Source: an uncultured Phycisphaerales bacterium (GTDB lineage: Bacteria > Planctomycetota > Phycisphaerae > Tepidisphaerales > Tepidisphaeraceae). Taken from it: a stretch of DNA of 64,000 nucleotides. How positions within the stretch are numbered: the first letter of the stretch is position 1; each line of letters opens with the position of its first letter. The DNA is taken from the NCBI GenBank assembly GCA_963758525.1, contig CAVWVQ010000003.1, forward strand, positions 1,600,001-1,664,000, read 5' to 3'. Position numbers and translations under genes: made by a program. Below, piece by piece: positions 19,783 to 36,018 of the stretch. Under the pieces are notes generated by a model. It was not told the DNA's origin and searched no databases. It saw only the letters and a list, made by a program, of their open reading frames with translations.

Positions 19783-20031
19783 ATGCCAGCCACCACCATT
19801 CGCATTCGTTCGGCATCGCATCAGGCGCTCAAGGAGTTGGCGGCGATGAGCGGGCGCTCCCTTCAGGACGAACTCGACCGGGCTGTCGAACAGCGGCGGC
19901 GAGCTGTTTATCTTGAGGGGCTCAAGGCGGACTATGCAGCGCTGCAGCAGGATCCGAAGGCCAGCGCCGACTTTCAGAAGGAGGTTGCGCTGTGGGATGC
20001 TGCAAGCGGTGACGGCTTGGAGAAGTTGTGA
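19783..20031 (+). CDS. Ribbon-helix-helix antitoxin-like protein
   Basis: TTIRIRSASHQALKELA…WDAASGDGL; GTGA overlap with a MazF-like remnant. Confidence 0.75.
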   Translation: MPATTIRIRSASHQALKELAAMSGRSLQDELDRAVEQRRRAVYLEGLKADYAALQQDPKASADFQKEVALWDAASGDGLEKL

Positions 20032-25344: not shown

Positions 25345-26018
25345 ATGGCAAAAACCACCAAACCCCCCGCAGCCGGCAAGAAGAGAATCTTTCTGGTTGA
25401 CGATCATCCGATCGTTCGCAAGGGGCTGGCACAGTTGATCGACAGCGAGCCGGACCTTTCCGTCATCGGACAGGGAGAGGACGCTTACAGTTGTGTTCGC
25501 GCGATCCGTGAGACCAAGCCGCACCTTGTTTTAGTGGATGTATCGTTAAAGAACAGCGACGGGATCGAGCTGGTCAAGGAACTCAAGGCGCAGTCGCCGG
25601 AGTTGGCGGTGTTGGTCGTGAGCATGCACGACGAATCGCTGTATGCCGAGCGGGCGCTGCGGGCGGGGGCGGGGGGATATGTGATGAAGCAGGAGCCGCC
25701 GGAGACGTTATTGTCGGCGATCCGCGCCGTGCTGGCGGACGAGGTGTATGTGAGCAGCAGGATGGGGGCAACGCTTTTGCAGCGAATGGTCGGTGCGAAG
25801 AGCGCCCTGCGCTGCCGATGGACCGGCTCACCGACCGCGAATTGGAGGTCTTCCGTATGATCGGCGCAGGCCACAGCGTCAAGGAGATCGCCGACAAGCT
25901 TTTTCTGAGCGCGAAAACGGTGGAAGCACATCGCGAGCACATCAAACAGAAGCTCGATATCCGCAGCAGCGCCGAGCTGCTGCGGTTTGCCATTCGCAAC
26001 ACGCCCGATGCGAAATAG
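25345..26018 (+). CDS. NarL/LuxR-family response regulator, frameshift near 25800
   Basis: Receiver domain LVDDHPIVRKGL…; HTH LTDRELEVFRMIG…LSAKTVEAHREHIKQKL in the next frame. Confidence 0.88.
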
Positions 26019-27987: not shown

Positions 27988-28006
27988 AAGCAAACGGAGG
28001 CATCAG

Positions 28007-29070
28007 ATGCCGTCTGCCACCATGAAGGCCAATGTTTTCCGGAGCGTCAATTCGATCGGGATTGAAGAAATGCGCCGTCCCGCGCGGGGGCCGGCAGCGC
28101 AATTATTCGAATTACGCTCACGACCATCTGCGGCACCGACCTGCATATTCTTCGCGGAGAGTATCCCGTGAAGCCCGGCCTCATCATCGGCCACGAGCCG
28201 GTGGGAGTGATCGAAGAGCTGGGCGAGGGCGTGACCGGGTACAAAGTGGGCGAGCGCGTGCTCGTCGGCGCCATCACGCCGTGCGGGCAATGCCTCGCCT
28301 GTCTGTCGGGGCATCTCTCGCAGTGCGGACACGGTGAGGGTTATGAAGCCATCGGCGGGTGGAGATTCGGCAATACCATCGACGGGTCGCAGGCCGAATA
28401 CCTCCTCGTTCCCAACGCGCAGGCCAACCTTGCCAGAATCCCCGACGATCTCACCGACGAACAAGTGGTGCTGTTGGCCGACATCGCGTCGACGGGATTT
28501 TCCGGCGCGGAATCGGGCGGAACGAAGCTGGGTGACGCGGTCGTTGTCTTTGCGCAGGGGCCCATCGGGTTGTGTGCAACGGCGGGCGCCAAGCTGATGG
28601 GCGCGTCACTGATTATCGGCGTGGACGCCGATGAGCACCGGCTTGAAATGGCCCGACAGATGGGAGCCGACATGGTTCTCAACCCGCGCATGCGACGTTG
28701 TTTCCGAGGTCCTGCGTTTGACGGGCGGCGTCGACGTCGCAATCGAAGCGCTCGGAACCCAGGAAACCTTTGAGAATTGCCTGCGTTGCCTGCGCCCGGC
28801 GGAACGCTGTCGAGCTTGGGCGTATACTCCGGCAAGCTCCACTTGCCTTATCAGGCGATTGCCGCCGGACTGGGCGATCATCGCATCGTCACGACGCTCT
28901 GCCCCGGCGGCAAGGAACGCATGCGCCGCTTGATGAATCTCGTGCGCTCCAGGCGTTTCGATCCCACGCCGCTGCTGACGCAGTCATTTTCACTGGGAGA
29001 GATCGTCAAGGCCTACGAGCTCTTCGGCAGCCGCCGCGACGGCGTCCTGAAGGTCGCCATCCGGCCATAG
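28007..29070 (+). CDS. Zn-dependent alcohol dehydrogenase (MDR) with about three frameshifts
   Basis: ICGTDLH, GHEPVG, CGQCLAC…C, QGPIGL, DVAIEALG, LCPGGKERM spread over frames. Confidence 0.88.
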
Positions 29071-29126: not shown

Positions 29127-29168
29127 TGCACTCGGCAGGAGTCGAACCTGTAATCCTCGGTTGCGAAG
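29127..29168 (-). repeat. att-like copy of the tRNA-Arg 3' half
   Basis: 42 nt with 3 mismatches to 35945-35986. Confidence 0.9.
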
Positions 29169-29259
29169 GTCGCTGGTTGAAGTGGATTTCTCAAGCTTTT
29201 GGTGACAATTCGGTGACAGATTTGGCGACTATTGTCCTCGGGCGCATCGCCATTCCGGG

Positions 29260-30167
29260 TTAATGGAGCAATTCGGTTTCCCTCAATAGCGTCAGGCAGT
29301 CACAATCCATAAAAGCACTGTAGGAACGGGTTCCGGTGATTCTGCTGCGGATGTCGAGAAGCTCGGGCGGTTTCATGTCTTGGCCGTTCCCACTACGAAC
29401 TTGTCTTTCAGACTTTCCCTTAGCTGCAAACGGTCCATGTTCAGCGGGTGATAGCCGAAACCGAGAAAAGCGACTTTTTCAGCCCGCCGCAGCGCCAATT
29501 GGGCCTTTAAGAATGGCTCCGATCTCGGTTCTGCCTCGTGGATGATCTGAATAGCTGCCGCGGCTCGCTTCGCGGTTTCCCCTCGCATGTCTCCCGTGAA
29601 GTCTCCGTAAGGGACAGCTTCCAGGTTGCCAAGCATCCCGTGAACGTGGTGGATTGGCGTTCCCTTCATTACTTCAATGACCTGGGGCTCGCTCTCCTTG
29701 TACCACGCCATAAGCTAGCGCTTCAGAAAATAGTCAAAGCAACGGTCGTAGTTGAAGGTAATGAAAGTGACTTCATTGACAGCAAATTCCTTGAGGTCGT
29801 GGCCTGCCATCTTCTTGAACAGATAGTGCATCCAGTTGACCGAACGATACTCAATTTTGAATGTGGCCTCTCGCTGCTCAAACGGAAGCAGGCAGAGTGC
29901 AATCATCAGCTTTCCGATGTCGAGGTGTTCTCGGTGGCTGGCCAGCAACTCGTCAATGGAATCATAATTTACTTCGTCGATCAGCTTTCTGAGTTCACCA
30001 TATTGCTTCTGGTCAATGTTCCCGGTGTTTGCGAGAATCTGAAAATCTCCGCGTTCGATTTTGAAGCATTCTCGCCGGATCAACGCCATTAACTTTGAGC
30101 CTGACGGGTAGCTGAAATCGCAGGACGAACCCGCGCCGAGAACAAACACGGTGTTATGCTTCAGCAT
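29260..30167 (-). pseudogene. SIR2-like protein with an in-frame TAG (29715-29717) and a 3' frameshift
   Basis: VFVLGAGSS, FITFNYDR, HVHG, FLGFGY. Confidence 0.8.
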
Positions 30168-30355
30168 GCCCGAATTCTATGGCCGCTCTGCGGGCACTTA
30201 CAGGGCAAATACTCTGGCAGGAAAAGGGGCAAGACGAGTACAAGGAAATTGTCGCGGATCTATCGACAGTACGGTTGCTACCGCTTATCGGCGCGCTCGA
30301 AGCAACACTCGCGGGCGGAGATGGCGTCGTCCTGTTCCAATGAAGCAGCCCCCCT

Positions 30356-31288
30356 TCACGCTGCTTTGCCACGGGGGATGTTAAAGATCGGCTCCCACCT
30401 GCCGACCAACGCACGGACGACGCCAAAGCGGTAATCGCTGTTTGAGCCGGGCATTTGTACATACTGCCAAGAAAGCCTTTGCGGATTAGGCTGCCACAAT
30501 TCCGGCTGAAACAGCGGCACTTCTGCTATCCGGCGCTGGTTCATAATGCTTTCCTCGATATCCTCCGTGCCTGCTACGAAAAGACACGTTTCCTGCTCAA
30601 AAAGTGTATAAACACCCATTTCTGATGGCAGTCCCACAGCGTCAAATTTGAGATGCTTGCTCCAGCGTAAATCATCGATGATTTTCGGCTTCAGCTTTGT
30701 ATTTGCACCTTTCTTCCGAGTGTTCAATGCGGCCCAACGGTATTCGAATGACGAGTAACCGGGCGTAATCGATGCAGCGAGCTTGTCGAATTCCGCAACG
30801 AGATTCGGGTGGGCTAAGGTCGTATCAACCGAGGCGCCGTACCGGTAATACATGGTTCTCGCTGCGACCTCACTGGCGACAGCATAGCGCCACTGATCCA
30901 AGACGACGGACCGCTTGGATTTCGCCTTGAGCTTATTGTGCTTCCGCAGGCCAATTAGCGCGACGTTCAGACGGAAAACCGTGTCGTCGAGGCCGAAATC
31001 CGCGCACGCTTTGACAAATTCCCGGTCAAGTTTCGGATCAGCCAGAACTCGGTCGGACGAGAATCCCTGTCGCACTTGCAAGAAGGCCCGAGTGACGGCC
31101 TTTTCATATTTTTTTGTCAGGTCATCCTGCGGATTGAGATCCTCGGTATACGGCTTACGACGTACTAATAGATTGGAAAGCGTGGCAGCTAGCTGGGCCG
31201 AACCGATTTGCCCATCATGGACGGCGACGCGATGTCCCAAGGTTGCGCCCATGCCGGCTGCGATTGCAAAATGATTGAGTTCGGCCAT
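30356..31288 (-). CDS. Protein with two internal repeats and a degenerate GIY-YIG-like C-terminus
   Basis: SDRVLADPKL…LRK and VDTTLAHPNL…TRK repeats; LPSEMGVYTLF…LFVAGTEDI…PIFN. Confidence 0.7.
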   Translation of the reverse strand: MAELNHFAIAAGMGATLGHRVAVHDGQIGSAQLAATLSNLLVRRKPYTEDLNPQDDLTKKYEKAVTRAFLQVRQGFSSDRVLADPKLDREFVKACADFGLDDTVFRLNVALIGLRKHNKLKAKSKRSVVLDQWRYAVASEVAARTMYYRYGASVDTTLAHPNLVAEFDKLAASITPGYSSFEYRWAALNTRKKGANTKLKPKIIDDLRWSKHLKFDAVGLPSEMGVYTLFEQETCLFVAGTEDIEESIMNQRRIAEVPLFQPELWQPNPQRLSWQYVQMPGSNSDYRFGVVRALVGRWEPIFNIPRGKAA

Positions 31289-31299
31289 GGCAGCAGTTC

Positions 31300-31698
31300 T
31301 CAGCCGAAATTCGAGAAGGTGTAGAACATTCCGTCAACGATCAGCGCCACCTCTCCCTGTTCCATTTCCTTGCCCAGCTTCTTGCAGAACGCACCGAGCT
31401 TTGCTTGCAGCTTCTTGTCGGATGCCTGTTCCTCAGTCATGTAGCAATGCAGAAGAATGGGGGAATCGGGCACTAAATTACCGCCATTTTCATCATCGCG
31501 CCAGATTCCCTCTGCTTTTGGCATCACAGTAGCGCCACCGTAGTTTTCGCCGAAAAACTTCAGGCTGTGGTCCTTCCATTCGTCCTGGTTAAGCAGCGGC
31601 TTTCCCACGCGATCAGCGCTTGGGATAAATAATATGGTGAGCACGCGTCGAGTGGCGGTCGCACCCGGTATCTTATGCCCTGTTTTGGTCACTGACAA
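31300..31698 (-). CDS. Hypothetical small alpha/beta protein
   Basis: YGGATVMP..EGIWRDD..G.LV…MEQGEV; tight spacing with its neighbours. Confidence 0.7.
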   Translation of the reverse strand: MSVTKTGHKIPGATATRRVLTILFIPSADRVGKPLLNQDEWKDHSLKFFGENYGGATVMPKAEGIWRDDENGGNLVPDSPILLHCYMTEEQASDKKLQAKLGAFCKKLGKEMEQGEVALIVDGMFYTFSNFG

Positions 31699-31728
31699 TC
31701 CCCTAACAAGTCAGGCGTATCCTCGTCA

Positions 31729-32652
31729 TTATGCGGCTATCTCAGCGGTCCCGACGGCCTCCGCCTTCAGCCGGCTACGAGCCAGCTTCGCGTATTGTGG
31801 ATTCAGCTCGATGCCGAGGAAGCGGCGGCCATTGCGGACCGCCGCCACTCCGGTCGTGGCGGTGCCAGCAAAACAATCAAGAATCAGTTCGTCCCTGTCG
31901 CTCGTGGCAAGCACAAACTGCTCCACCAGTTCCAGCGGGAAAGTCGCGAAGTGGTCTAGCCGAGACCGTGCCGTAGCACATTCGATCACATCCCGCGGAA
32001 TAGTCCCTTTTTCATTCAGTTTGAAAGTCTTTCCTTTGCGGAACCGCTGTCCCTGGGGCCCGGCCTCTTCTTGCGCTTTTTTACCGCCATACGCCTGGCC
32101 TCCGGACCATCGACGGAGCGTGACCGCCGAGTACGGCACGCGAATCGAATCAGCGTTGAACTTGTAGCCACGCGCAGCCTTGGTGAGAAACAGAATGTGT
32201 TCGTGGGAGAAACGCCAGCGGTCGCCAGCGCCGTCCGGCGCGGCGTCCGATTTCGACCAGATTAAATCATTGCGAAGCGTCCAGCCCGCTTCGCATGCGG
32301 CGATTGCGAGTCGCTGAGGGACGAGTTGGAGCGACTTGTTGATATACGTGTCGCCGACAACAAAGAAGCAGGAGCCGTCGGGTTTTGTCACCCGGAAAAG
32401 CTCCCGAAAGATATTTTTCATCCGGGCTATATAGTCGCCAACGGAGGTCTCCCATCCCATCTGCCCCCTAACGTGGTAGTCTTTTTGGCGGTAGTAGGGT
32501 GGCGAGGTCACCGTGGATTGCACGGAGCCTGTCGTAACGTCGCTCAACTTCGTTTCCGCTGACCCCTCCACAATATCGCCGTGCAGCCGTTCGAGTTCAT
32601 GCAGCGGCGCAGTCCGTTTGCGCCCACCCGACTTGCGATCGGAGATCGCCAT
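31729..32652 (-). CDS. Beta-class N4C/N6A DNA methyltransferase
   Basis: Motif IV TSPPY before motif I DCFAGTATT; HFATFP; GIELNPQY. Confidence 0.92.
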   Translation of the reverse strand: MAISDRKSGGRKRTAPLHELERLHGDIVEGSAETKLSDVTTGSVQSTVTSPPYYRQKDYHVRGQMGWETSVGDYIARMKNIFRELFRVTKPDGSCFFVVGDTYINKSLQLVPQRLAIAACEAGWTLRNDLIWSKSDAAPDGAGDRWRFSHEHILFLTKAARGYKFNADSIRVPYSAVTLRRWSGGQAYGGKKAQEEAGPQGQRFRKGKTFKLNEKGTIPRDVIECATARSRLDHFATFPLELVEQFVLATSDRDELILDCFAGTATTGVAAVRNGRRFLGIELNPQYAKLARSRLKAEAVGTAEIAA

Positions 32653-32832
32653 ATGTCACCTGTCAGCTGAGATGTATCGCGTCACCATCCGTGGGAACGC
32701 CGCGCGGACCCCATCCACCATGTTCCATCGGCACGATGCGAAACGACACGTTAGTCGTTCTGCGATCAGCGCTTGCAGCCCGCCTTCGGCCTGGGAGTCT
32801 CCCGTGGTATCATCCGCGCGTCAAGGAGAATA

Positions 32833-34003
32833 TTGGAAGGTTCGACGCTGACACAATCCCGCCGCCGTGCTTCTGCGCCGCGCCGGCTGGCGCAGCGGAA
32901 TTCTTTGCGGGTATCGGTCTGGTCAGGCTCGCGTTGGAAAAACATTATTGGCAAGTCGTATTCGCTAACGATATCGACCCAGACAAACAGGAGATTTATG
33001 AGCACAACTTCGATGACGGTCATTTTCACCTCGGTGATATCCATAAATTGAGCCCAGATGATATTCCCGATTGCGAGCTGTTCACCGCATCCTTCCCTTG
33101 TAATGACCTGTCGATCGCCGGGTCGTGGTCGGGGCTAAGTGGCAAGGAATCGTCAGCATTCTGGGGCTTGATCGATATCTTGAAGGCGTTGAAAGGTAGG
33201 CGCCCACCGCTCGTGATGCTCGAAAATGTGGTCGGGTTTCTGCAATCGGGGGGCGGCCAGGATTTTGAGACTGCCCTCTTGGCCCTCAATCAGGTGGGTT
33301 ACACCGTCGACGCGTTTATCTTGAACGCAGTTCATTGGGTTCCTCAAAGTCGGGCGCGACTGTTCGTCATCGCCAAGGCTGATGGCCTCTGTGAAAAACC
33401 TCTCCCCTTTGCGATGGAAACGGACGCGCGTCCCGATGCGCTGTTTACATTCATCAACACGCACCAAAATATTCGCTGGGATATCAGTGAGCTGCCCCGG
33501 CTTCCGAAGCCGCGCACGAGACTTCGGGATATCATCGAAAATTTGCCAGACGACGACCCACATTGGTGGAATGACCAGCGAGCGGCATATTTCTTCAGTC
33601 AGTTCAGCGAGCGCCACCTCATGGCGGTGCGCTTGATGCTCGGTCAGAAGACCTATCAGTACGCGACCGCATTTCGCCGCGTGCGATACGGCAAGAGCAT
33701 GGCAGAGCTGCGCACAGACGGGATCGCCGGATGCTTGCACACCCCCGGGGCGGGAGTGGGCGTCAGATTCTGTTCAAAGCGGGAAAGGGGAAATTCCAAG
33801 TGCGGTTACTGACGGCCAGGGAATGCGCACGCCTGCAAGGCGTTCCCGATGACTACGTGATTAAAGTGCCGCTCAACCAAGCGCTGTTTGGCTTTGGCGA
33901 TGCGGTGTGTGTTCCCGCTGTGCGATGGATTGCCAAGCACTATTTGACGCCCCTGGCTCTGGAAATTACTGCTGACCCTTTTCTATTTGCGGCCCCTCAT
34001 TGA
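32833..34003 (+). CDS. dcm: C5 DNA cytosine methyltransferase, apparent frameshifts near 32890 and 33745
   Basis: EFFAGIG, SFPCNDLS, ENVVG, PQSRARLF, RECARLQG, FGDAV; AAGGAG before TTG 32833. Confidence 0.88.
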
Positions 34004-34012
34004 GACCCACAA

Positions 34013-34969
34013 ATGTCTTTTGCGCAATACGAAAGCTCGTTCACCGAATGGCACGATGAGTACATGATGAAGGGCGGAGCCGACGTTCCTGCTCGCCTGC
34101 TGACACTCCTCGGCTTATTGGAGCGACTGCGGGAACTTCCCGTGCTTGACCTCGACCAGCATAAAGCCGACAGCGGGATGCAACTCATTGAGCACAACGC
34201 CTTCGTAGATCGCGCTCTGGCACGGTTCGCAGTGCAATCCCCGGTTCAGGAAAAGGGCCGGCGCTCAAACAATTTGCACGCATGGGCGAATTCCCTGTTC
34301 GCCTGGCTCACAGCCGCGGGCTTTCAGCAAAATGCGCCGAACGACGACCTTCTGCTTGGGGCACAAGCGGTCGCCGCAAAACGACTCGCTCTAATCAACG
34401 ATGACAAGCCGCTGATCGCCCGTTACAGCAAAGGAACCGCAGTCGCCGTTATTGCAGACATTCTCGACCAGGCTCAGGAAAAGAAGCGGGCGAAGGACGT
34501 TGCCGAGTACCTGGTCGGCGCGAAACTTGAGCTTCGGTTCGGCGACGGGGTGGTCCAGCCCAAGAACGTAAACACGCCGAGTCTCGGTCACCTGGCCGAT
34601 TTTCGCATTGGCAATACTGCGATTGAGGTGACCACAGTCGAGCGCGCTGACAAGTCTCATCTTGATCAGATCACCCGGATTCTGCAGAACACGGGCTTAC
34701 AAGTCTGGCTGCTCACGAGGATGAAGGATCGCGAGAAGTGGCAGCACGCAGTAGAAGCTCTGTTCGATGCTCAGGTTCTGCGCATTGTGGTGGCAGACAT
34801 AGAAACCTTCGTCGGCCAGAACGTGTCTGAGATTGGCAAGTTTCAAAGCGAGGACGTCGCGAAGGCTCTATCCGCGCTTTTCGAGCGTTACACAACACAC
34901 TGGCTTCCACCGATCGGCGCGGGGGGATTGCGAATTGTCAACATGGAAACGGGAGGTGCCGTGCGTTAG
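34013..34969 (+). CDS. DUF4928-like putative restriction endonuclease
   Basis: EYLVGAKLELRF, DFRIGNTAIEVT, DIETFVGQNVSE; 9 nt after dcm. Confidence 0.7.
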   Translation: MSFAQYESSFTEWHDEYMMKGGADVPARLLTLLGLLERLRELPVLDLDQHKADSGMQLIEHNAFVDRALARFAVQSPVQEKGRRSNNLHAWANSLFAWLTAAGFQQNAPNDDLLLGAQAVAAKRLALINDDKPLIARYSKGTAVAVIADILDQAQEKKRAKDVAEYLVGAKLELRFGDGVVQPKNVNTPSLGHLADFRIGNTAIEVTTVERADKSHLDQITRILQNTGLQVWLLTRMKDREKWQHAVEALFDAQVLRIVVADIETFVGQNVSEIGKFQSEDVAKALSALFERYTTHWLPPIGAGGLRIVNMETGGAVR

Positions 34970-35241
34970 ACAGGGCGTTACCGTCGATCTGGCGTCGCCT
35001 CTTCCTGCACCCATGCTAAGATGATCTCTCGCGCTGTAGCCGCATCAGTTTCGGTTGAGTTTGCGTGGTCATTATAGACCGTGACTTACTCTCGCGAGTC
35101 AGGCGGGAAACCACCGCTCCATTTCCAAGAAATCGGCTTTCAGATTCGCAAGCTGTTGCTGCTCGGCCATGGGCGCTCCTGGTATGGGGAACAAGAATCA
35201 TATTATCGTTAGAATCTGTTGCACCCCAATCCGGTACATCC

Positions 35242-35676
35242 ATGGCGGACACTTTTACCCAGGTGGAACGGTCGCGCATCATGGCGGCGATCAAATCACG
35301 TGATACGAAGCCGGAGCTTTTAGTTCGCAGACTGATTCACCGCCTCGGCTATCGCTACCGGTTGCATGATCGCTCGCTTCCTGGCACCCCCGATATCGTC
35401 CTTCCCCGCCTCCAAAAAATTGTCAACGTCCATGGATGCTTTTGGCACATGCATTCGTGTCAACGTCACCGAAAAGCACCGGCCACTCACCCGGATTATT
35501 GGATCGCTAAACGAACAGGAAATGCCGCGAGGGATCGGAAGAATCTGGCCGAACTGCGTCGTCGAGGCTGGGATGTCCTTACGATCTGGGAATGCAGAAC
35601 GAAGAATGCGGCGGAACTATCAAAACTCCTCGTTAAGTTCCTTGCGATGAAACGGGTAAAGACAGAGGGACCTTGA
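35242..35676 (+). CDS. vsr: Very short patch repair endonuclease
   Basis: RSRIMAAIKSRDTKPE, LPGTPDIV, VHGCFWH, N..RD, IWEC. Confidence 0.93.
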   Translation: MADTFTQVERSRIMAAIKSRDTKPELLVRRLIHRLGYRYRLHDRSLPGTPDIVLPRLQKIVNVHGCFWHMHSCQRHRKAPATHPDYWIAKRTGNAARDRKNLAELRRRGWDVLTIWECRTKNAAELSKLLVKFLAMKRVKTEGP

Positions 35677-35944
35677 GTTGGTTAGTACAAGTGTGTTTCC
35701 TGCTTCTGTTGTACGGGTTATGCAGGGAGTTCGCATTTGCCGTCATCCTGGAACGAGAGTGGCCGGGGAAGCTCGTCGTGATGAATCGCCGGAGCTTGAA
35801 GAAAGTTCGTTAGTCGGCAGCGGCGTGAAGTAGGTCGGCCCCCTCCGCATGACGATCGCGTGGGGGTCAACTGACCAGGTCCTTTTGGTGACACGAATCG
35901 GTGCGAGCCCACTGGCGGCTCACGTAAATCCTTGTTATTCCTAA

Positions 35945-36018
<74 letters not shown>

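Follow-up and report, generated by a model that had tools for sequence, protein, structure and literature searches.

We analyzed a 64,000-nucleotide stretch of the genome of an uncultured Phycisphaerales bacterium of the family Tepidisphaeraceae (assembly GCA_963758525.1, contig CAVWVQ010000003.1, positions 1,600,001 to 1,664,000), which is called the window here and to which all coordinates refer. It carries an island of genes next to a tRNA gene. Two of these genes, encoding proteins of 132 aa (31300..31698, minus strand) and 310 aa (30356..31288, minus strand), form a conserved pair, which is the unit of the locus. The small protein is predicted from its structural model, Foldseek and profile comparison to resemble S-adenosylmethionine (SAM) lyases of the PII/CutA fold and is a candidate toxin or SAM sensor. 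Its 310-aa partner is a chimera of an N-terminal arm, a tandem helix-turn-helix (HTH)-like domain, named RD here, and a degenerate GIY-YIG domain. The explanation which we favor, and which we hold only tentatively, is that the pair works as a toxin-antitoxin (TA)-like switch with a SAM-destroying toxin, attached to methylase or restriction-modification (R-M) loci. The analysis supports the pairing itself, the predicted fold of the small protein, the origins of the domains, the absence of key residues from the nuclease domain and an association with DNA methylases.

A conserved gene pair

The open reading frames (ORFs) 32652-31729, 31698-31300 and 31288-30356 are located on the minus strand inside the tRNA island and are separated by 30 and 11 nt, as given in a preliminary description of this DNA. 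The first of them encodes an N4-cytosine/N6-adenine DNA methyltransferase of 307 aa with the motif SPPY at residues 50-53 (31729..32652; Pfam N6_N4_Mtase, PF01555, E 2.8e-42). The preliminary description combined these three genes with a downstream SIR2-like gene into a candidate defence operon and left the 132-aa protein without a name. This protein is the informative gene of the locus and, judging from its model, it and not SIR2 is likely the effector.

Related loci, the first 160 of which were chosen by similarity to the 310-aa protein, were found in Tepidisphaeraceae and other Planctomycetota. Where the partner has the form present in the window (form B), it is immediately preceded by an intact small gene in 17 of the 21 loci whose upstream DNA is available. 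Four loci with gene loss (L082, L083, L088, L090) have lost the small gene and kept partner sequence, and two of the four partners at loci without the small gene are themselves damaged. Indirectly, the pairing is also seen from the other side, since 16 of 20 matches to the small protein on contigs of at least 1.5 kb are on a contig equal in length to one with a partner match. Relatives of the small protein were detected in 12 of 401 genomes of the phylum and 14 of 401 genomes of the class.

Two apparent deletion fusions were observed among the relatives, one joining the N-terminal half of the methylase to RD (L090:1741-2553) and one joining the N-terminal half of the small protein to the second repeat of the partner (P0057). 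They are either real or the result of chimeric assembly.

Predicted SAM-lyase likeness of the small protein

The monomer model of the 132-aa protein reached a predicted local distance difference test (pLDDT) value of 91. Its top match in Foldseek was the phage SAM lyase Svi3-3 (6ZM9, E 1.7e-6). Svi3-3 was also first in a structural search of 48,161 chains (Z 11.8, root mean square deviation 3.2, 119 residues aligned; next chain 8.9) and in a ranking of the PDB by a profile of 52 family sequences (profile A4), there with a weak E of 0.017. A profile of close homologues (profile A2) reached no SAM lyase in the PDB.

The alignment with Svi3-3 pairs G64 of the window's protein with G56, W66 with Y58, D78 with E69, Q114 with Q104 and G115 with E105. 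Only Gly56, Glu69 and Gln104 are reported as strictly conserved in SAM lyases (PMC7877911). Within the 52 family members, the Gly56 position is Gly in 51 and the Gln104 position is Gln in 51; the E69 column holds Asp in 38 and Glu in 14 and is thus acidic in all of them. Since the Gly and the Gln are kept and this column is acidic, the small protein likely binds SAM or a close derivative, as far as sequence and model can tell. It was not filed as a member of the SAM lyases because the catalytic Glu69 is replaced by Asp, although the change is conservative. Enzymes of the Svi3-3/T3 type are homotrimers whose active sites lie between the subunits, and they turn SAM into methylthioadenosine and homoserine lactone.

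What Svi3-3 (6ZM9/6ZMG/6ZNB) and the T3 SAMase have in common with the small protein is the predicted fold, the two ligand-site residues Gly and Gln, and an acidic side chain where Glu69 stands. However, identity to Svi3-3 is only 13%, with Asp for Glu69, Trp for Tyr58 and Gly for Glu105. Unlike the phage enzymes, the small protein is encoded on the chromosome, always together with a downstream partner, and its lyase likeness is a prediction. A second relative of the fold is the SAM-AMP lyase of CorA-associated type III CRISPR systems (9GAB/9GAD), which is likewise host-encoded and has a PII-like lyase fold, with an acidic residue in the T-loop and a Gln in the B-loop. The match to this enzyme is weaker (E 1.8e-3) and it cuts SAM-AMP, not SAM; neither the island nor the scanned neighbours showed any CRISPR genes.

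Several observations weigh against a SAM-destroying activity. Asp takes the place of the catalytic Glu in the window's protein (D78) and in 38 of 52 family members, and the Svi3-3 variants E69Q and E69A are reported to be nearly inactive (PMC7877911). The window's protein also has Gly at the Glu105 position and Trp at that of Tyr58. None of the 52 members matched the SAM-lyase models of Pfam at E<=1, the presence of PF23780 in the Pfam copy being unchecked, and three of 52 weakly matched DUF3574. The same fold is found in an enzyme that cuts SAM-AMP instead of SAM (PMC12255297) and in the non-catalytic sensors PII and CutA.

The next most probable explanation, which we regard as possible but doubtful, is a non-catalytic one. 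The small protein would be a PII-like sensor of SAM, S-adenosylhomocysteine or methylthioadenosine, which binds the arm of the partner and thereby adjusts a DNA-binding regulator of the adjacent methylase or R-M genes to the supply of methyl donor. The Asp in 38 of 52 members fits such a role, as does a partner of DNA-binding type with a dead nuclease, and PII-like proteins are described as mostly ligand sensors acting on partners (PMC10890737). The link to methylases (see below) fits a sensor equally well. However, the Glu is kept in 14 of 52 members and the best structural match is a lyase, not CutA or PII. Furthermore, related pairs with another partner type are located amid unrelated housekeeping genes, where there is nothing consistent to regulate, and no operator-like repeat was found in the divergent region of six aligned loci.

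Domain structure of the 310-aa partner

The model of the 310-aa protein has a pLDDT of 91.5, with lower confidence for the N-terminal arm (62-70 for residues 1-30). The arm comprises residues 1-42 (31163..31288) and is followed by RD (30698..31120), which consists of two four-helix repeats and is predicted to bind DNA. The two repeats noticed in the preliminary description are present, but they are longer than the approximately 40 aa given there: they align over 59 columns with a period of 76 residues (hhalign 97.6%, E 4e-12). Four residues of RD are invariant, R115, R184, R191 and K192, and in the model the invariant Arg and Lys residues sit on the last helix of each repeat. Foldseek gave no match for RD. 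In VIA-align, with RD taken from the full-length model, repeat 1 reached only Z 5.0-5.6 to trihelix and winged HTH domains.

The C-terminal part (30371..30676, residues 205-306) has the fold of the GIY-YIG nucleases, such as the N-terminal domain of UvrC, R.Eco29kI and T4 EndoII, which is supported by a profile match to the GIY-YIG domain of UvrC (E 3.5e-8) and by structure comparison (Z 6.0-6.8 to five GIY-YIG structures). It differs from these nucleases by the replacement of motif residues and by the fusion to RD and the arm. In GIY-YIG nucleases the Arg is catalytic and the Glu binds the metal. The preliminary description had already pointed to the missing second Tyr and Arg, and indeed F237 and S247 stand in their place. 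In addition, the Gly (A239) and the catalytic Glu (V291) are absent, so that four of six conserved motif positions checked are replaced; Y227 and N303 are kept. The lost catalytic residues together with the HTH-like domain support the earlier idea of a DNA reader, and the 310-aa protein looks like a predicted reader rather than a nuclease. A type II R-M system composed of the SPPY methylase and the 310-aa protein was considered and rejected, as there is no cognate active endonuclease and the GIY-YIG residues are lost.

Relatives paired with ribbon-helix-helix proteins

Many relatives of the small protein are followed by a ribbon-helix-helix (RHH)-like protein of about 110 aa instead. At least 1,199 clusters of such partners were found, with named members in Myxococcota, Acidobacteriota and Deltaproteobacteria. 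The RHH-type pairs are mostly isolated two-gene islets among housekeeping genes. RHH_5 was detected in 4 of 120 partners among the matches listed, and a Pfam HicB/Arc RHH match was obtained in a second lineage of pairs described below.

The arm of the 310-aa protein aligns with the N-terminus of the RHH-like partners (hhalign 76%, E 2e-5) and bridging sequences exist, so that the two are likely homologous. The homology is modest, and it was not detected by hmmsearch with the full RHH-partner profile. In a FastTree tree, the B-type small proteins fall among the RHH-paired ones. From the likeness of the arm and this tree position, form B likely arose by replacement of the RHH part by the RD-GIY-YIG module. 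Mimicry of the small protein's own N-terminus by the arm was also considered and is unsupported (hhalign 0.2%).

The pair shares with type II TA systems the small two-gene operon and the layout of the partner, in which an N-terminal arm is followed by a part that is predicted to bind DNA. An order with the toxin gene first is known from HigBA and HicAB. In contrast to type II systems, the DNA-binding part is here a predicted tandem HTH with a dead GIY-YIG domain. No known TA toxin with the fold of the small protein was found in the searches run.

In the islet family of RHH-type pairs (L162-L168, L173, L189-L191; P0098-P0217), the partners carry ALGA and GGRP motifs, and most members have no Pfam name. 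These islets of a SAM-lyase-like and an RHH-like protein are candidates for a new TA family in several phyla. A third branch of SAM-lyase-like proteins (L169, L174-L176, L178-L179, L181-L185) has the motif VPEGDR...WDRV and is followed by short basic-tailed proteins in which no RHH is detectable; up to seven family matches occur in one genome (G092).

Forms of the RD-GIY-YIG module in Planctomycetes

RD and GIY-YIG occur together in four forms (A1, A2, B, C) among the 160 loci. In form A1, the module stands behind a fused N6/N4 methylase, and Gln replaces the catalytic Glu in 69 of 85 sequences. Form A2 is a stand-alone protein encoded directly behind A1 with a full active site (Arg in 104 of 105, Glu in 98 of 105). 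In form B, the Arg is present in 0 of 18 rows. In form C, the RD-GIY-YIG module is fused behind a protein with helical and RHH parts, which is unrelated to the partners of the first lineage.

The two-gene locus of A1 and A2 recurs in L006-L080 and L094-L160 (e.g., L009:6200-8735), and some genomes have the methylase fusion alone. PADLOC holds no model for form A2. From its sequence, A1 with A2 looks like an unlisted R-M pair in which both proteins share one DNA-binding or specificity module. On sequence comparison, the RD and GIY-YIG parts of the 310-aa protein belong to this Planctomycete pair of a methylase and a GIY-YIG nuclease. A profile of the module (profile A3) matched 341 of 401 genomes of the phylum, nearly all via the GIY-YIG part alone; full-length RD-GIY-YIG was present in at least 13 of the 401 among the 150 matches listed.

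Form C belongs to a second lineage, in which the preceding gene encodes a distant SAM-lyase-like protein that carries the motifs G-x-Y and Q-E-S. The loci are L022, L040, L049, L066, L102, L118, L129, L134, L151, L159, L206 and L207. Their GIY-YIG domains keep Arg and Glu and have lost the second Tyr and the Gly. The pair of the second lineage also exists without RD (L198). The modules of B and C do not group in the RD tree, where C is placed with A2 (support 90, in a quick tree without bootstrap). Two separate captures of RD are likely but not proven, mainly because the partners and the small-protein lineages differ.

Link to DNA methylases and restriction-modification genes

A DNA methylase is located within 1.5 kb in 13 of 19 RD-bearing loci and in 0 of 19 loci without RD. 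For this count 31 RD and 24 non-RD loci were tallied, after exclusion of duplicates and of the window itself, and 12 and 5 of them were dropped since both flanks had to reach at least 1.5 kb. A Pfam rescan of the 19 control loci (at most six long ORFs from each locus, cut to 330 aa) revealed one RNA and one small-molecule methyltransferase and no DNA methylase.

In the close subfamily, an SPPY methylase with 68-77% identity precedes the pair in L001, L002, L003, L085 and, in part, L090, and all five loci are head-to-head with a Dcm gene. The positions of Dcm in the relatives were taken from a local Dcm profile (four seeds, one of them wrong) and tblastn. At these five loci, the slot between Dcm and Vsr is swappable and holds DUF4928, an HNH protein with HTH or a GIY-YIG protein with HTH. 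Form C adjoins a D12 adenine methylase in all 12 loci long enough to tell, and one B locus (L100) has a D12 methylase upstream. Hence three different methylase families are found beside the RD-GIY-YIG module.

The neighbourhood survey bears out that the trio of methylase, small protein and partner recurs beside R-M genes in other genomes. The SPPY methylase did not hold up as a fixed member of it: it is upstream only in close relatives, and elsewhere a D12 methylase or none is found. This methylase, like the divergent unit of Dcm, nuclease and Vsr, belongs to the context of the pair and is no fixed part. On the opposite side of the balance, the neighbourhood contains no methylase in 6 of the 19 loci with RD, and the loci are kin and not independent. 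Three genomes of the family have Dcm-Vsr units, one of which includes DUF4928, but not the trio, so the R-M unit also exists alone. In addition, the window's genome holds only the B copy, with no active-type RD-GIY-YIG or RD-methylase which would define the target of RD.

These counts bear on a simpler explanation, in which the genes are a plain selfish addiction pair and RD-GIY-YIG is a substitute DNA-binding domain fused by chance, owing to the presence of such pairs and R-M genes on common islands, with no coupling to methylation. The six loci without a methylase and the kinship of the loci speak for it, and in L104 a methylase/nuclease locus, a possible donor, is arranged tail-to-tail with the pair. 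We consider it unlikely, as the module is found on two different partner types and beside three methylase families, and even after the loss of catalysis its sequence has stayed at 30-80% identity, with Arg and Lys residues that are invariant.

Phage SAM lyases are described as acting against restriction (PMC7877911; 10.1101/2023.02.27.530186). The pair could be an anti-restriction cassette of a mobile island, with a SAM lyase that for a short time disarms SAM-dependent host systems such as type I R-M or BREX on entry and a partner that serves only as autorepressor. The adjoining integrases at two loci (L214, L203) agree with this. However, neither viral contigs, in a pattern-limited search, nor 50,697 phage records yielded close relatives, and plasmids gave only one weak match. 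In PHROGs the small protein matched only phrog_3543, of unknown function; 20 phage proteins have the same fold at E<=0.001. Moreover, SAM destruction would disable the island's own methylases, encoded in the same operon, and an autorepressor needs no RD-GIY-YIG on top of an existing RHH, as present in the second lineage. This explanation appears even less probable than a plain addiction pair.

Proposed mechanism

The TA-like switch that we favor would operate in four steps, which are given here from the most to the least confident. First, the small protein would bind SAM or a close derivative. Second, it would form a complex with its partner, whose N-terminal arm would hold it inactive. Third, it would cleave SAM despite the Asp at the catalytic position. 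Fourth, when the partner is lost or displaced, SAM would fall and methylation would stop. The neighbouring SAM-independent nuclease could then cut new DNA of host or invader, and the cell would arrest or die. The tandem HTH and the dead GIY-YIG domain of the partner would bind DNA and tie the pair to the methylase locus. As an outcome, the methylase or R-M island would be stabilised and infection possibly aborted. A precedent for such a SAM drain is the T3 SAMase, which is reported to inhibit growth at high expression and to be more toxic with the type II system EcoRV (10.1101/2023.02.27.530186).

A variant directed at host defence, with the same SAM destruction, is about as unlikely as the plain addiction pair. 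Here the tandem HTH and dead GIY-YIG of the partner, derived from a Planctomycete methylase/nuclease pair, would read unmethylated sites of incoming DNA and release the SAM lyase. The collapse of SAM would keep host and phage methylases from shielding the invader, the SAM-independent nuclease would stay active and the cell would arrest.

PrrC-EcoprrI is a guard system of R-M. Similarly, the pair described here could back up restriction by cell arrest. Unlike PrrC-EcoprrI, it has no ABC-ATPase/HEPN effector, and its candidate effector would target SAM. No named system has this arrangement, as had been suspected in the preliminary description: PADLOC, Pfam and NCBIfam contain nothing relevant for the 132-aa or the 310-aa protein. 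A literature search, made mostly at the level of abstracts, retrieved no paper that describes RD or a pair of a SAM-lyase-like protein and its partner encoded on a chromosome, and in PMC12839542 a SAM lyase is named in the references only. The parts are of known kinds, and their combination has no description in the searchable literature.

The SIR2-like gene and other genes of the island

The SIR2-like gene (29262..30167, minus strand) starts 188 nt downstream of the 310-aa gene. Its reading frame has two breaks, an in-frame TAG (29717-29715) and a frameshift close to 29375. The label is fair because relatives match Pfam SIR2_2 (9 of 13 aligned) and, weakly, KomC; the window's own copy does not match SIR2_2 and reaches only E 0.0013 with the SIR2 model of PADLOC. 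It was suggested earlier that a methylase/reader module activates this gene product as a NADase, for which the shared strand and island, the SIR2-like motifs and the matches of the relatives can be cited. However, of 15 related loci that extend at least 1.5 kb downstream, counted after removal of three duplicates, none carries a SIR2-like gene, and conversely the pair does not lie within 1.5 kb in any of 14 fetched SIR2-like loci of the class. A single genome contains both, but they are on separate contigs. Together with the 188-nt gap and the two breaks, this makes a coupling very improbable, and the SIR2 gene seems to be carried by the island as a passenger with no link to the pair. In SIR2 abortive-infection systems such as Thoeris and DSR, a SIR2 gene that is conserved together with its sensor genes would be expected, and this is not seen here.

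The island (29127-35993, 6.9 kb) extends between tRNA-Arg(TCG), the integration site (35945..36018, minus strand), and a 49-nt copy of the tRNA 3' end (29127..29175, strand not assigned; 88%). Its G+C content is 55%, compared with 61% for the genome. The tRNA and its flank are kept in two genomes of the same genus, in which the island genes are unmatched among the matches listed. No integrase was found among the island ORFs. Between Vsr and tRNA-Arg, about 230 nt are without a long ORF (window 35700-35930); attachment-like repeats are present and an integrase of the island's own is absent.

Family scans confirmed the head-to-head orientation to a Dcm, DUF4928 and Vsr unit on the plus strand. 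It consists of a Dcm-like C5-cytosine methyltransferase (32830..34003; Pfam PF00145 in two pieces), a DUF4928 protein which is a candidate type II restriction endonuclease (34013..34969; PADLOC REase_II, E 2.3e-9) and a Vsr mismatch endonuclease (35242..35676; TIGR00632 above cut-off). The Dcm gene is frameshifted near 33745 and, as read from the aligned sequence, apparently broken a second time near 32890. It is 70% identical to the copy in L003, and tblastn detected one frameshift in this comparison. Across the genome, tblastn revealed frameshifts at 11 of the 64 places covered (12 in 67 kb). As frameshifts are common in this assembly, those of the island may be assembly errors and not biological. 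Frameshifts are also apparent in a zinc alcohol-dehydrogenase-like gene (28003-29070) and a response-regulator gene (25345-26000), both named from ORF reading.

Scans for promoters and terminators gave results at chance level only. A conserved CTCCTT block of the divergent region was rejected as an operator, as it can be read as the ribosome-binding site of Dcm on the other strand. A possible further TA pair was read by eye elsewhere in the window, with an RHH-like ORF (19783-20031) and a short ORF (to 20212) just outside a TPR/glycosyltransferase-like gene.

Implications

The fusion of RD on two lineages, beside three kinds of methylase, suggests a control of the methyl donor which is linked to restriction-modification. 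If the defence variant were true, a phage anti-restriction enzyme would have been turned into a host effector, and this on two SAM-lyase-like lineages. A chromosomal SAM-lyase-like family with antitoxin-like partners would represent a new toxin chemistry if the proteins are active, and a new class of SAM sensors if they are not.

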